Positions 3,132 to 58,600 of a stretch of 64,000 nucleotides of DNA are shown here, one piece after another. Under the pieces are notes generated by a model, which ran no database searches, was not told the origin of the DNA, and worked only from the letters and a program-made list of their open reading frames with translations. Position 1 is the stretch's first letter; each line of letters begins with the position of its first letter. Both the position numbers and the translations under genes were made by a program. The DNA is from Octopus sinensis. Its lineage: Eukaryota. The stretch is taken from the NCBI RefSeq assembly GCF_006345805.1, contig NC_043019.1, positions 6,199,360 to 6,263,359 of the forward strand. Reading direction: 5' to 3'.

Positions 3132-5250
3132 TTAATTTCTCTGTGTGAGTATGTTCGGATGGTTGAGTCTGGGTTTGTACTTTTCAATGAAGAATGTTTC
3201 CTTGTTCAGTCTCATTTGTGTTGATGATCCGAAAGCACATTGGTAAAATGGGAAGATTAAAAATTGTGGCAGTAGTTGCTTTGCGCATTTCTCAATGTGC
3301 TCACTAAAAGGTATCATTCTATATTCTGGGAATGCAATCTGTTGTCGATGCAGTGTGCATCTACGCCTGAGTGATAGTCCCGTGGAACCCACGTAGTCTT
3401 GGTGGCAGCCCGAGCATTTAATAACATAAATTATGTTTTCAGAGGCACAAGTAAAGTTAGATTTGATCTTAAATTTCTGTCCCTCTTTAAAGAAGAATTC
3501 TGATCCTTCCAATAGGTTAGGACATGTTGCACAGTTCGATCTACCACATTTTTTTACTTTTGCATCCGTAATTTTAGAAGACAATTTTGCCTTTGTGAGA
3601 ATCTTTTTAAGTGATTTAGGCTGTTTGTAGCTTTTAATGATTTGGTGTATGTTTAGAATTTCCTTTAATTTGGGGTTTTTATGAAGTATTGGTAAATTCT
3701 GGGTGATGATGGTGAAGGCTTCTTTGTTTCTGGGGTTGTATGTAGATATGTAAGGTAGTATTTTCGGGGAAGGTGTGTTGTTGTGTTGAGCTTTTCTTAA
3801 AGTTTCTATGTTGATTTCTGTTGCACGTCTGATCCCATCCTCTATGAGTTGAGCTGGGTAATGTCTGTCAATTAGGGTGTTTTTGAGTTCTTGCAGTCTA
3901 AAGTTCCTGGTATTTTGTTCTGACACTATTGTGCATATCCTTCTTGCAAGGTTGAAGGGGATGTTTGTTTTAGTGTGTCTTGGGTGGCATGAATTAAAAA
4001 GAAGGTATTGTTTGGCGTCTGTGGCTTTGTAAAAAATGTCTGTTTCTATTTTAAGGTTAATTTTTTTAATTAGTATATCCAAGAACGGGAGCTCCTTTTG
4101 GTTGTATTCCATTGTGAACTGTATATTTGGGTTTATGCTGTTCAATAGGTTTTTAAATTTTAGGAGTTTATCTGTTTTCATTCCAAAGAATGAAACAATC
4201 GTCTAGGAATCGTTTCCAATTCTCTTTTATGTATTGAGAGAGGGAGTTTCCAAAGATTAATAGAGATTCCTGGTAAATGATTATTTCCATGTATCCCATT
4301 GTTAAGTTAGCAATGACTGGTGCTGCCCTTGTACCCATAGCAATTCCGGATTTTTGACGGTAAAATGTATTGTCAAACATGAAGTGGTTATTGTGTAGGA
4401 TGAATTCAATTGATTTAGTAATGAATTCCTTACTGATCCTTTTTGGTATTTCTTCCGGAAATTGGTCTAACCAGAATTGTATTGCCTCCAGTCCATAATT
4501 ATGAGGTATACTGGTATACAAGTTGACTACATCAAATGAAACCAGGATTGTTTCTTCCTTGGTTTTTTTTGGAAGGTGGTTTAACATATCTAAGTCATCT
4601 CTGATATGGCTATCGATATGTTTAAGGAAGGGTTTCAAGAGGATGTCCATAAGTAGACTTAGTCTGTGTGTTTCACAGGTTGGGCCAGCTACAATGGGTC
4701 GTAGTTTTAGGTCCCCCGGATTAGGTGTGTGTATGTATGTCTTTGGTGATTTTTTAATGGTTTCATTTATAATTTGACTTTTATGAATTTTTGGCAGACC
4801 ATAGAAAAGGCTAGGTTTGCATTTAAAGTTTGTTAGGAAATCAATCTCTTTGGTTGTCAGTTCCTTTTCATGGGTTTTAATTAGTGAAGATAGAGTTTTC
4901 ATTATTTTTTGTGGGGTGTAGTTGGTAATTTTTTCATAATGTCGGTCTTCATCAAGCAAGGAAATTACAAGATTTCTGTAGTATGATGTATCCATTATTA
5001 CAACTGCATTTCCCTTGTCCGCTTCCTTAATGGTTATATCTTCATCATTTTGGAGTTCTATCAGTTCTTTCCATTGTGTAGTGTTAAAATTTGGGTTAGC
5101 TTTCTGTTTATGTATAGTATGGTAGGGGAAGTTCTCAATGTGGTTACAGAATTCGTCAAGATCTTTATTTCTTCCTCTGTGTGGGATGTGTTCACTTTTG
5201 TTCTTGACTAGTGATTCATCTTCAGTATTGAAACTGTTTGATGCTTCTGC
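3132..5250 (-). mobile_element. Penelope-like retroelement (Neptune-like), RT + GIY-YIG ORF, 5'-truncated, one frameshift near 4170-4180
   Basis: RT motifs IKEADKGNAVVIMD, FYGLPKIHK, LRPIV, SFDVVNLYTSIPH, GIAMGT, RFLDD; thumb LPFLDI/HPRHTK; Cys linker CGRSNCATC; GIY-YIG NIIYVIKC..YVGST..RRRCTLHR. Confidence 0.95.
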
Positions 5251-38144: not shown

Positions 38145-38850
38145 TACGAAGTGGTATCAAAACGTTCCCGGACTAGTTATATTTAATTTTAAAAAATAAC
38201 TTTTTCACCTAAATTTTAGCAGCATCTCCTTCGAAATAGTCGTCTTGCACAGCATTACACCGGTTCCAACGTTGCTGGAACAATTTGGAATCAATCTTGG
38301 AAGTCATATTCCGTAAGCGAGTCGAGGACCATCTGCGATTCACTCTTGATCTGGACATTGGCGACCTTTGCACTGCATTTTCATCTTGGGGAAGATATGG
38401 GAGTCCGCAAGCGCTAAATCTGGTGCATAGGACGGGTGCGGAAGCGACACCATGTTGTTTTGCGCGAGAAACTCACGAGTGAGAGCTCCGTAATAATGTG
38501 CGTTGTCGTCGTGAAGAATCCAATTCTTCGCGCTTCACAAATCGGGTCGCTTTCACCGAATGTCCTCCCTTAAACGCTTAAAAGCATTGCAGTATAACTC
38601 TCGGTTGATGGTCTGGCCCTGAGGAACGAATTCTCGATACACACTGCCGCGGATTTTGAATAAAACGATTAGCATGTCCTTGAATGAGCTGTGGTTCTGT
38701 AGTGCCTTCTTCGGTCGTGGAGTTTAAGGGCTCTTCCATTATGTCGACTGCTACTTTGATGTCGTAAGCTTGCTGAAGTATGCTCAATGTCTCTGTAGCA
38801 GACTTTCCAAGTTTAACGAAAACTTTCACGTTGGCTCTTTGTTCCTGTCC
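38145..38850 (-). mobile_element. Decayed mariner transposon
   Basis: EQRANVKVFVKLGKSATETLSILQQAY (mariner N-terminal HTH) and further catalytic remnants. Confidence 0.8.
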
Positions 38851-39139
38851 ATGACAAAATCTTTTTATGCTTTGATACTGGTGATACATTTCTATCTTCA
38901 GTCTCTAGCTCCTTACAAACTTTGTAGACGAAAGATCTGGCAACTTTTAAAAACCGAGATATTTCTAAATCGCTATGCTCAGCCTTTATGACCACAACAA
39001 CAGCATGCCTCTTCATTTCCTGAGTAAGCTGAGGGTGTACCATGATTATTTTCTGAAACAAAGATTATACAGAGTTAGCAAAAAATGCAGCAATGACTCA
39101 AAAAAGTTATGTCCCCAAATACCTTATGTACCCCGTATA
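38851..39139 (-). mobile_element. Tc1/mariner-superfamily 5' fragment
   Basis: MKRHAVVVVIKAEHSDLEISRFLKVARSFVYKVCKEL HTH-like start; terminus ta-cggggtac. Confidence 0.6.
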
Positions 39140-39221
39140 TACAGCTGTTCCAGAAACAGTTGTAAGAAATTTTATGCATTACTTCTTAATCCCTTATTTA
39201 CTTTAACATCACTGTAATTAT

Positions 39222-39504
39222 TGGTTGTATAAAGTCAACATAACGTGACAGTCCCGTGGGCTTAGTAAGCATCACCGCTAGCGGGGACACGCTACCCTGA
39301 ACTGATGACGGGCAATACTCAGAAACATGCATGTATTCATGTTGCTAGTCCTAGCTGGTGGGGGTGCTTGCCTCCCCTTTGCGAATATAAGGACACAGGA
39401 AATGTATGAAAGCCGACAGGAAGCGTCGATGCTTCCTAGGACTATATAGCGGTGGTGTAATTCCCTCTACGGGACTGTCACGTTATGTTGACTTTATACA
39501 ACCA
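39222..39504 (+). mobile_element. 283-bp element with perfect 36-bp terminal inverted repeats enclosing a hammerhead
   Basis: tggttgtataaagtcaacataacgtgacagtcccgt (39222-39257) is the exact reverse complement of 39469-39504; no TSD seen. Confidence 0.85.
39298..39339 (+). ncRNA. Minimal type I hammerhead ribozyme
   Basis: UGAA-CUGAUGA-C-GGG caaua CUC-A-GAAAC-AUGCAU-GUA-UUCA; palindromic ACAUGCAUGU. Confidence 0.75.
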
Positions 39505-39849
39505 CTCTATCGCTCCACCACCACTCATGTCTCTTTGAGACATTTAGAAATTCAATATTTCTAACTGTAATTATTTTTGACTTATAAATGACATACTCTA
39601 AAGCAGAGGTTCTTTACCTTTTTTTTTACCTGTGAACCCCTTTGATTCCTATTTTACTTGTGCTGACTCTCCATTGCCATTCAATATTTTAAAAATCCTA
39701 TTGTAGCTATTGAGTTAAATATTCTTAGGACTTCTATAAAAATTGTTAAAATATTTTGTGCATGTATAACCAACTTCATGCGCATAAACTTCATCAACTA
39801 AATTCTATGGAAAATGAATGCTCACAAATAAAAATAGTCATAAATAAAC

Positions 39850-43189: not shown

Positions 43190-43603
43190 TATGTGTGTGT
43201 GTTTACAACAGGCTTCTTTCAGTTTCCATCTATCGAATCCACTCACAAGGCTTTGGACGGCCCGAGGCTGCAGTCGAAGACACTTGCCGAGGGAGAGTGT
43301 CACGCAGTGGGACTGAACTATAAGAAATTATAAGAATTATAAGAAATTATCAGTAGTTAGCGTGAAAAACCTCGTAAGAGAAATTTATCCTTAATTTTAT
43401 CCTTAATTTTAAATTTATATTTTTCACCGGAATAGTTCAATACTGAATTTTTGTTCCGAGTAGGCAAGTTGTTACCGAAATGCATTGCGAATAAGCCCGC
43501 CATTTTCATAGATATGTAAAGATAAACATTCGTACATGCTGCGGCGAATTCTACGGTTGGCTGTCGGGTTTGTAATGTGTTTTTTCTTATATCTCTTGAG
43601 TTC

Positions 43604-43667
43604 GTTGCACTGAAGAGCATAGAATACATATTCTGCATTGATTGCGAAATCACAAGTGATATGTAAC
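43604..43667 (+). ncRNA. Type I hammerhead, unit 1
   Basis: GUUGCA-CUGAAGA-GCA..AGAAU..AUUCU..UGC-GAAA-UCAC aa GUGA-UA-UGUAAC. Confidence 0.75.
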
Positions 43668-44097
43668 TAAATTCTGTTTTTAAATGACTTGCTTTGAAGT
43701 TTTGCATTCGGTACACTTTGTTTATTTTTAGTAGTTTTGACTGCAAAAGTCCCTCCTAGCGTGCGGTACCTATGAATAATAGTACCCTCTATATAATATA
43801 AATAAATATTTTCAAAGTGGAAAAATTTACAGATTTTTTCTCTTACGGGGTTTTTCACGCTAACTACTGATACTTTCTTATAAAGATTTATCCTTAATTT
43901 TAAATTTGTATTTTTCACCGGAATAGTTCAATACTGAATTTTTGTTCCGAGTAGGCAAGTTGTTACCGGAATGCATTGCGAATAAGCCCGCCATTTTCAT
44001 AGATATGTAAAGATAAACATTCGTACATGCTGCGGCGAATTCTACGGTTGGCTGTCGGGTTTGTAATGTTGTGTTTTTTCTTATATCTCTTGAGTTC

Positions 44098-44161
44098 GTT
44101 GCACTGAAGAGCATAGAATGCATATTCTGCATTGATTGCGAAATCACAGGTGATATGTAAC
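44098..44161 (+). ncRNA. Type I hammerhead, unit 2
   Basis: Same as unit 1, with stem III UCAC ag GUGA. Confidence 0.75.
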
Positions 44162-44283
44162 TAAATTCTGTTTTTAAATGACTTGCTTTGAAGTTTTGCA
44201 TTCGGTACACTTTGTTTATTTTTAGTAGTTTTGACTGCAAAAGTCCCTCCTAGCGTACGGTACCTATGAATAATAGTACCCTC

Positions 44284-44346
<63 letters not shown>

Positions 44347-49136: not shown

Positions 49137-50297
<1,161 letters not shown>

Positions 50298-55659: not shown

Positions 55660-58600
55660 TTCCCTAATATTTATTATTTATATAATATTGATAATTTTGT
55701 ATATTGAGTGTAATACCTCAATTTCGAAAATTATGGATTTTACAGGTAAGATAGAACCGCTGTTTTGGGATTCATCTTTGAAAGATATTCCTATTCCTTC
55801 TAGAAAGGAATTTATCTTGAAACTTGTTAATAATGTTAAAGATTTTATTTCTAGAATTAAATGGAAGCTTTTTACTATAATTTTTATTTATTTAATGATA
55901 TTGTTAGTAGGAATGATAATTATACCTCTAAATTTAAATCTAGAAAGGAACCTCCATTTAATAAAGAATTAACAATTACTTGAAGATAGTATATGGAAGG
56001 TGGTAAAAAATATTGAATTCCATAAATACCCAAATAGAAATAATGAATATTTAAGGAATTTAGCAATTAAAATTAAAGATATGAGAAATATGGATGGTAT
56101 TATAGTACAATCTGATAAAACAAGGAACTTATATAATTAGATGTTAAATTATATGATAACTATTAGGGAAAGAAATAATTAAAAAATATAAATTGTTCCA
56201 GATGATATTCTTTATAATATTAATAAGCCTCTAAAGTAGTAATGTTAAAATATGAGTTGGATATAAAACTGAACTTATGTACCTTTGCACCCCAGAATTA
56301 CTCTTAAAGACCAAAGATAATTTTTATTCAGACCCTAAAGTTAGATTAATTTGCCCATGTAATCGGACCTAGGTAAATTAAGTAAATTTATTTTAGATAA
56401 ATATTGATAAGTTAACAAACTTAATTATTTAAAATTATGGTTTAGTAATATAATAATATTGAAATGGTTTAATAATATTAAAGATAAAATCGTTATAAAT
56501 TTATTCAAATAGATATAGATAATTATTATTCTTCTATTAATGAAATTGTGTTTAATAAAGCGCTTATATTCGCAATGAATAAAGTGGGCATGTCACGGGA
56601 AGAAGTAATGTAATTAAAATGGCTAGGAAATCGCTTATTAAATATAAAAATAAATTATGGGCTAGGAATGATACTAGAGATTGTTTTGATATACCTATGG
56701 GATCACCAGATTCTGCACAGGCTACTGATTTAGTAGGTATTTTTCTTTTATCTGACTCCATTAGAAAATCTTAAGATAGAGGGTGGTTTATAGATAGACG
56801 ATCTTCTACTAGTTACAAAGAATTGTACTATAGGAATCTAGAAGTATATAAGAAAAAACTATATAGTTTCTTTAAAAGATATGGTTTACGTATTACTATA
56901 TATAAGGAGAATTATAATGTTAATTATTTAGATGTTAATTTTAATCTTATTACAGTAAAACACAACCATATCATAAACTTAATGATAAACCTTAGATATA
57001 TAATGTTATAGTAATCACCCATTTTCTATTAAAAAATCGTTGATTAATAATATAAGTAAACGTATTTCATTACTCTCTTATGATATAGAGATTTTTAATA
57101 AACATGCTATTATTATAATGAGGCCCTTAGAGGGGCAGGTTATAATAAGAATATTAAATTTTATAATATTAGCGATAAAGATTTAAATGATAATTTTCGA
57201 GATACTTCTAATAATAATTATAATTTTGTTAGGTTTAGTGGTAAAAAATAGATATTATAAACAAAATAATAAAATGATAAAAATATAAATAAGAATAATA
57301 ATAATAATAATAAATATATAATATATATAATGAATAATATAAATAAAAATAAATTTAATAATTATTATAATAATTATATTGATAAATTTAATAATATTAA
57401 TAATTCCTTAAATGCTGTACATAGATATAATTCTGATAATAATTTTAATAAAATAAAGAATTATAAATATATTTATAATAATGATAATAATAATAAGGTT
57501 AATAAGAATAAAATTTGGTTAATAGTTCCTTATGGAGATCAAGTAAAAACGAATATTATTAAAGAGATTTTAGATGTTATAGAACTATTTATAAGATAAT
57601 CGTAAATATAGAAACATTTTCTCTTTTAATAATTTTGGAGTTGGTTACTCTACCACTAATAATGTTGGTAACATTATTTCTTCATTTAATAAATATAAAC
57701 TGAATAATTTTATAAAAGAAATTATTGATAATAATATTAATAATGATAAGACTTATATTATTGTACATGTAGAGATAAATCTAATTGTATATTAAATAAT
57801 AATTGTGATATTAACGATGTAGTGTATAAATGTATAGTTACATTACATGATAATAATTTTAAGAATAATAATTACACAAAAGCGGTTTATATAGGTTCTA
57901 CTTCCTCAAAAATAAAACTAAGAATCGCACAACATATGAATTCTTTTAAAAATAAAAACTTAATCAACTCAACTGGACTTAGTAAGTACATTTGGAGTCT
58001 TAAATCACTAAATATTAATTATAGTTTAATATGGGAAATAATTTGTAAAACTAAATCATATAATATAGAGCTAATTGTTGTTATTTATGCTCTAATGAGT
58101 TTAAAGATTTTATATTATAAGTATGATAATTTACTTAATACTGGTGAAGAGCGCAAAATAAAATGCAGACACAAGTTACTTTACCTATATAATAAGTTTC
58201 ATGATAAATAGCAATAATAGTTCCCTTTAGGTATTTTAGTTTAGTTTAAATTAGTTTGATATATATTTTTGGTTATGTTGTCTAGGCTTTAATTATAGTT
58301 AGTCTTTATTGTTATTTCTTTGTTTTAATTAGTTCATTTTAATGTATATTAATTTAACAGTTTATGGTACGTTAAAACTTTAATAATTTATATTAGATTT
58401 TTTTATTTTTTATTTTTATTTTTATTTTTTTTATTTTATTTTATTATGTATTTTTATTTGCATTTGTTATATGTATTTTGGAGGATATATTTATATGTTT
58501 TTGGGTGTTATTTAGCGGTGTTTTTTATTGAGTTTTGTATGTATGTGTGAATGTTTAAGATCCCTTTGTTTTTTGTTTTTTATTTGTATGAATTGACAGA

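Follow-up and report, generated by a model that had tools for sequence, protein, structure and literature searches.

A dispersed 354-nt hammerhead ribozyme family in Octopus sinensis: inverted insertions, paired end sites and LINE passengers

The insertion at 39222-39563 and its ribozyme

The window, by which we mean the whole stretch of 64,000 nucleotides of Octopus sinensis DNA that was analysed, contains at about 39222-39563 a 342-bp insertion belonging to a dispersed family with a period of 354 nt. The initial annotation had described a 283-bp hairpin element at this place, ending at 39504, in which perfect 36-bp inverted ends enclose one hammerhead ribozyme and no target-site duplication (TSD) is present. 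The inverted repeat is indeed exact (39222-39257 with 39469-39504), whereas the boundaries have had to be redrawn, as family sequence runs about 60 nt beyond 39504 and a TSD is found outside the longer interval. The parts of the insertion, and a second one in the same window, are as follows.

39211-39222, no strand: left copy of the TSD, ACTGTAATTATT, its last base common with the arm
39222-39257, minus strand: inverted 5' arm, a 36-nt reverse copy from family end site A, identified by the inverted-repeat match
39259-39563, plus strand: direct copy of the 354-nt unit, 5'-truncated, unit positions about 109 to 59, across the unit origin
39296-39341, plus strand: minimal type I hammerhead, identified by core motif and covariation
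39498-39510, plus strand: end site A, AC-rich (..ACAACCACTCTAT)
39505-39563, plus strand: 'tail' of about 55-60 nt with two predicted short hairpins, at the right end only, stopping at site B (..TTTCTA/A)
39564-39575, no strand: right copy of the TSD, ACTGTAATTATT, repeating the left copy
43337-44303, plus strand: tandem units of another hammerhead family (491-nt period), inverted 5' arm, the same insertion logic

The window copy thus pairs an arm at A with a direct end at B and is framed by the 12-bp TSD, the left copy of which is given as 10-12 bp because its last base is common to the TSD and the inverted arm. Its direct arm deviates from the commonest family letter at 14 of 305 mapped bases; it is without passenger sequence, and the frames over it are all short (<65 aa). 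The 283-bp unit is not an element in itself but part of a single 342-bp insertion, which derives from a repeated ribozyme-bearing retroelement of 354 nt. A broken mariner-type transposase (Pfam Transposase_1, E 2e-8) adjoins the insertion on its left, on the minus strand at about 38200-39100.

The hammerhead is in place as first described, with a CTGATGA core from 39302, GAAA at 39322 and a cleavage triplet GTA ending at 39335, after which the cut is predicted; stem I is formed by 39296-39301 with 39336-39341, and stem III is the palindrome ACATGCATGT. Rfam scans reported no hammerhead at this site at E<=10, and the call rests on the core motif and on covariation. Conservation is 97.8% at core positions and 94.0% overall (about 88 segments), and both sides are changed in 10 of 13 pairs among 20 rows, including a change from C3-G8 to U3-A8, a result inflated because these rows were chosen by a pattern demanding pairing. 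The window copy has a stem I mismatch at 39340 (1% of copies) and a G-U pair in stem II at 39319 (4%), and its ribozyme is predicted from sequence to be weakened. It holds one complete ribozyme, and loci L017 and L060 hold two each in tandem, at least two complete ribozymes in tandem being the published criterion for an 'active' retrozyme (bioRxiv 10.64898/2026.07.22.740005). The computed fold of the 283-nt stretch includes the internal pairing of caccgcta with tagcggtg that had been pointed out, and its departure from shuffled sequences (z -10.6) is due largely to the arm. The minimum-free-energy fold of the isolated ribozyme is not the hammerhead fold; a dimer fold pairs the stem III palindrome. 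Cutting of the multimer would probably be by a dimer of the ribozyme, and insertion would not require it.

Direct arms cross the cleavage bond in 72 of 100 cases, which suggests that the template would mostly be an uncut multimer or circle. Ribozyme-cut monomers were rejected as template, as 5' ends do not pile up at the cut (3 of 100 direct arms start within 5 nt of it). Among sequencing runs matched with a query that included flank, none was listed as RNA; three that were presumed to be RNA yielded 80-338 contigs of the family, and the single raw RNA run yielded 0 reads. None of these figures has a bearing on expression, ends or circles.

Copies, arms and end sites in three hammerhead families

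When the 2.7-Gb genome was searched with the 283-nt query, 110 matches were obtained (40 of 2225 candidates scored); the best of the scored matches mostly span query positions 38-283 rather than 1-283, and sequence to the right of 39504 is common to many copies. ORF look-alikes come mostly from molluscs. The unit period of 354 nt was taken from a natural tandem copy. An exact family 20-mer has 148 matches genome-wide against 1 for the reversed control, a figure that is not a copy number because arms and tandems are counted separately. The 114 loci mapped gave 112 rows after duplicates and edge-cut matches were dropped, and among these rows four large insertions are entered as two halves each, one locus is present in duplicate and some rows are fragments.

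Direct copies stop at site A in 55 rows, at site B in 45 and elsewhere in 12, so that 100 of 112 end at one of two sites lying about 55 nt apart, with a tail of 55-63 nt. By analogy with PMC11167929, site A is likely to be the first reverse-transcription start. Direct arms are longer than one period in 24 of 100 cases. An inverted 5' arm is present in 41 of the 112 rows and ranges in length from 21 to 369 nt, whereas the initial annotation had looked to fixed 36-bp ends and had named, ahead of the search, variation of the repeat from copy to copy as the mark of ordinary inverted truncation. Across 28 insertions the mean difference between the two arms is 7.5%, and the perfection of the 36-bp match is not special, because at this mean divergence 36 identical bases have a chance of about 6%. 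Divergence from the arms of other copies is 9.1%, and the insertion's own arm is the nearer in 20 of 28, a comparison that faintly hints at a single template RNA for both arms.

Arm and direct end almost always use opposite sites. With the arm named first, the scorable insertions comprise 0 AA, 12 AB, 19 BA and 1 BB (opposite sites in 31 of 32; Fisher p 5.8e-8), the 9 of 41 inverted rows with an end at neither site being left out of the count. In 9 of the 19 BA insertions the arm includes tail sequence that is wholly absent from the direct copy. Anchored, non-simple TSDs of at least 8 bp were found in 17 of 112 rows, 14 of them among the 41 inverted rows (shuffle mean 2.2, maximum 8); their lengths are 8-16 bp and they are located outside the tail. 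Insertion sites are biased to microsatellite or AT-rich DNA, and many other TSDs are unscorable because microsatellites adjoin 56 of 100 ends, against a background of 10.6%.

A young sister family with a 362-nt period is 60% identical to the 354-nt unit end to end (score 200, against 70 +/- 12 for shuffles). Its copies (L281-L310) are 99-100% identical, have a U3-A8 hammerhead core and form arrays of about 20 units. Among 30 loci all 17 scorable insertions are reciprocal (11 BA, 6 AB, 0 AA, 0 BB), 4 loci having been set aside from the pair count, one of them a possible BB, and pooled over both families reciprocal end use amounts to 48 of 49. The initial annotation had also seen a like layout at 43337, with an inverted 5' arm before hammerhead units, and this is borne out: the 491-nt family there ends in (TA)n and shows two hammerhead cores, one in a canonical type I ribozyme (about 43605-43668) and one at 44104. 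A blastn comparison gave no match between the 491-nt and 354-nt families. Two ends and variable arms were again seen at 20 loci of the 491-nt family, a sample selected by similarity and hence biased. At 19490-19670 the window has two hammerhead-like cores facing opposite ways, at 19548 (minus) and 19605 (plus), probably another inverted insertion.

LINE and ORF1-only passengers upstream of the ribozyme

At unit positions 127-146, directly before the ribozyme, several copies are joined to foreign sequence. L1/Tx1-type LINEs and ORF1-only derivatives lie 1-17 nt upstream of the hammerhead core with 14-20-bp duplications, in three related unit families.

L277:1250-6760, L279, L280:1140-6510, L276 and L160 (G000): two-ORF L1/Tx1-type LINEs with 14-17-bp duplications, placed 8-17 nt before the hammerhead core of three diverged unit families
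L061:2451-5349, and L140, L147, L149, L154 and L162: ORF1-only (HAL1-like) cassettes, 1.7-2.1 kb
G000:C3:72503860-72526838 (L230, L232, L233, L240, L278): ribozyme unit and LINE repeated in tandem with a 5.72-kb period, one copy inverted

One two-ORF LINE has open frames of 512 and 1140 codons. The Pfam domains of the passenger LINEs are of L1/Tx1 type (APE, RT and zinc finger in ORF2, CCHC in ORF1), the best solved relative is human L1 ORF2p, and the best named homolog of ORF2 from the related LINE L145 is labelled 'Transposon TX1' (31%). The LINEs finish in a 3' end of their own, AATAAAGA, with a 14-20-bp TSD inside the unit; where both junctions of a full LINE are present the duplications measure 17 bp for two of the unit families and about 14-16 bp for the third. 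Among two-ORF relatives at 20 loci, a 5' junction with the unit was found at 14 by blastn and at 1 more by eye, 4 of the 20 loci lying in one array, 4 in another target and 1 being truncated. The near-intact two-ORF family of L145, L146 and L152 occupies one position of an abundant repeat, likely a SINE, with a duplication of roughly 16 bp.

One form of the cassette measures 1.85 kb and has a 363-codon CCHC-knuckle frame. With ORF1 of one of the genome's two-ORF LINEs it has an identity of about 31%, and that LINE for its part occupies a fixed position in another repeat, likely a SINE. A word from the cassette's 3' end has 46 exact matches, of which 30 were fetched. The hammerhead motif comes next in 18 and unit sequence in 2 more; by eye, the others run into another cassette start (3/30) or into a partial target word or unrelated DNA (7/30). 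In all, ribozyme units flank the LINE at 15 of 20 loci, 4 of them in one array, and follow the cassette 3' end in 20 of 30 cases, counts that are not all independent because some are recopied composites, and in both sets the proportion exceeds the 20% of flanks above which a LINE is regarded as target-specific (PMC4494074). Cassettes join ribozyme units in L061, L140 and L162, and diverged cassettes, 73-83% identical where aligned, occur in tandem runs (L140, L147, L149, L154, L162); in a within-genome ORF1 tree the ORF1-only cassettes form an old clade of their own (support 91/91, a value under the starred level of the tool). That the short unit arose from the ORF1 form by splicing was considered, but a GT donor occurs in some older copies only, and insertion with a TSD is preferred.

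In L061 and L085 the 3' part of the cassette stands on both arms of an inverted insertion, so that the composite itself was the template, and some composites have been recopied Penelope-style. For the young LINE, identity is 97.7% in the unit and 99.4% in the LINE (66 pairs), stretches too short to separate independent insertion from recopying. We infer that the LINE endonuclease may target the position before the hammerhead core and that the passenger RNA may use the ribozyme. No LINE aimed at hammerhead repeats came up among the papers listed in literature searches, and Repbase, Dfam, subscription papers and supplementary files may contain such families.

Origin of the insertion and relation to known systems

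Taken together, the interval 39222-39563 is very probably one aged, protein-free insertion of the hammerhead family of 354-nt period, a non-LTR retrozyme, which is likely to have been copied by the RT-endonuclease of a Penelope-like element (PLE). The family belongs to the known non-LTR retrozymes (non-autonomous Penelope-like elements). What had been proposed at the outset, a small ribozyme-bearing element that is mobilised by a PLE and is not a MITE, is retained, with mobilisation likely; the suggestion of an undescribed class is given up, the pattern being that known for Penelope insertions. Such insertions include inverted, 5'-truncated copies, often with the tail on one end, and the origin of inverted and tandem structures in Penelope-like elements is an open question (PMC8557442); a Penelope-like protein, predicted to be a dimer, cleaves both strands of AT-rich DNA and has two internal RT starts bounding the tail, the ribozyme being dispensable in vitro (PMC11167929). 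Our current model is that the PLE enzyme would cut both DNA strands about 10-13 nt apart, and that each 3'-OH would prime a cDNA, one starting at A and its partner at B, with uncleaved multimers or circles of the RNA as template; both cDNAs would halt at random and then be joined head to head. In the window copy the A-primed cDNA would have ended after 36 nt and the B-primed cDNA after about 305 nt, giving the look of a hairpin, a structure that Penelope-type insertion ordinarily leaves behind. The reciprocal A/B ends fit paired priming by a Penelope-type RT-endonuclease.

As for the source of the enzyme, a GIY-YIG Penelope-like family is abundant in the genome (L191-L220; 88-94% amino-acid identity) and apparently also has two 3' ends. 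No canonical hammerhead was found in the 700 nt scanned after its frame, its terminal repeat at 30 loci is without homology to the 354-nt unit, and it counts against a PLE partner that the sole intact RT found in physical linkage with the units is a LINE ORF2. Elsewhere in the window, frame fragments of Penelope-type RT and GIY-YIG endonuclease lie at 3930-5064 (minus strand), 49565-49891 and 57792-58172.

A fixed-boundary 283-bp hairpin element or MITE, or an element primed by foldback, would account for the perfect 36-bp arms and the strong fold, yet it is scarcely credible, being refuted by the range of arm lengths; against it also stand the extension of the family beyond the right arm, a TSD that frames the longer interval, and ends that are reciprocal, not equal. 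Foldback, suggested earlier as the mode of priming, is contradicted because it predicts equal ends, which just one of the 32 scorable insertions has, and because it cannot supply a tail missing from the direct copy (9/19). Readings as DIRS, Helitron or DNA transposon were dropped, as the boundaries vary. A route nearer to two-site priming, with the same family and the same enzyme, would have both cDNAs begin at B and the endonuclease trim one tail while resolving the intermediate. It likewise yields a tail on one end only, and endonuclease-mediated resolution has been suggested (PMC8557442); genomic data alone do not separate trimming from two-site priming, but the Penelope-like protein begins in vitro at two internal sites matching the tail ends (PMC11167929), and we consider trimming unlikely, though worth keeping in view.

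The full two-ORF LINEs between ribozyme units, which at one locus form the 5.72-kb-period array, and the old clade of ORF1-only cassettes invite the further reading that the L1/Tx1-type LINE inside the units is the true autonomous driver and the 354-nt unit its deletion derivative. This is very improbable, as the LINEs have their own AATAAAGA 3' end and a TSD within the unit, close LINE relatives occupy other targets, and a LINE junction is seen in 3 of 30 young-family loci, one of them the query. To our knowledge, overlapping inverted arms with internal A and B ends are not products of LINE twin-priming, which also counts against a LINE driver.

Within the preferred account of Penelope-type copying, we advance tentatively, as a possibility and with rather more doubt than confidence, a joint reading in which L1/Tx1-type LINEs and their ORF1-only derivatives are specialised on hammerhead retrozymes and ride on Penelope copying with coordinated dimer priming. 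Insertion upstream of the core would place the passenger RNA between two ribozymes, giving it defined ends or allowing circularisation, much as R2 uses rDNA transcription and a ribozyme; passengers would also be carried by the retrozyme's Penelope-type copying, amounting to three-level parasitism, and the reciprocal start sites would reflect one enzyme dimer priming both DNA ends in a coordinated way. The 354-nt family thus offers two leads, reciprocal start-site use and ribozyme-adjacent LINE targeting. The reciprocal ends bear on how Penelope-like elements build inverted and tandem structures, and the 99%-identical young family with strictly reciprocal ends supplies in vitro work with a template of 362 nt and a sharply defined prediction. 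LINEs upstream of the ribozyme are less expected than the varying flipped end piece, itself known from Penelope-type elements; if true, a LINE aimed at the site ahead of a self-cleaving ribozyme would add a class to the targets of sequence-specific retrotransposons, and ribozyme-adjacent insertion would be a route for Penelope machinery to move 2-6 kb of coding cargo.

The family shares with MITEs and DNA transposons a short, non-coding form and apparent terminal inverted repeats; unlike them, it has repeats and boundaries that vary, copies that are 5'-truncated and tandem, and TSDs that are variable and lie outside the apparent ends, not flush with the repeats. Like the non-LTR retrozymes (PMC7229834; bioRxiv 10.64898/2026.07.22.740005), it is protein-free and occurs as dispersed monomers and multimers with long TSDs, its period falling within the 150-450 nt of their tandem units, each with one type I hammerhead, for which a Penelope origin has been proposed; the inverted arms and tails go unmentioned in the sections of PMC7229834 drawn on here. 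PLE insertions with pLTRs (PMC8557442; PMC11167929) resemble it in 5' truncation, partial tandems, an inverted 5'-truncated copy, a tail at one end, AT-rich and microsatellite targets, and a hammerhead upstream of two internal starts. Their tail is given as 30-40 nt in these papers, against 55-63 nt in the 354-nt family, which differs further in having no RT-endonuclease ORF and in the near-strict end reciprocity counted here. The passengers, for their part, resemble Tx1-clade LINEs in an APE-RT-zinc finger ORF2, a CCHC ORF1, a preferred place in a multicopy repeat and a TSD (PMC4494074), and HAL1 in their ORF1-only derivatives (PMC5753468). The Tx1 targets given in PMC4494074 are DNA and LTR transposons, snRNA, 5S rRNA, microsatellites and satellites, whereas the place occupied here is upstream of the hammerhead core and, unlike Tx1-clade LINEs and HAL1, the composites have been recopied with Penelope-type arms and tails.
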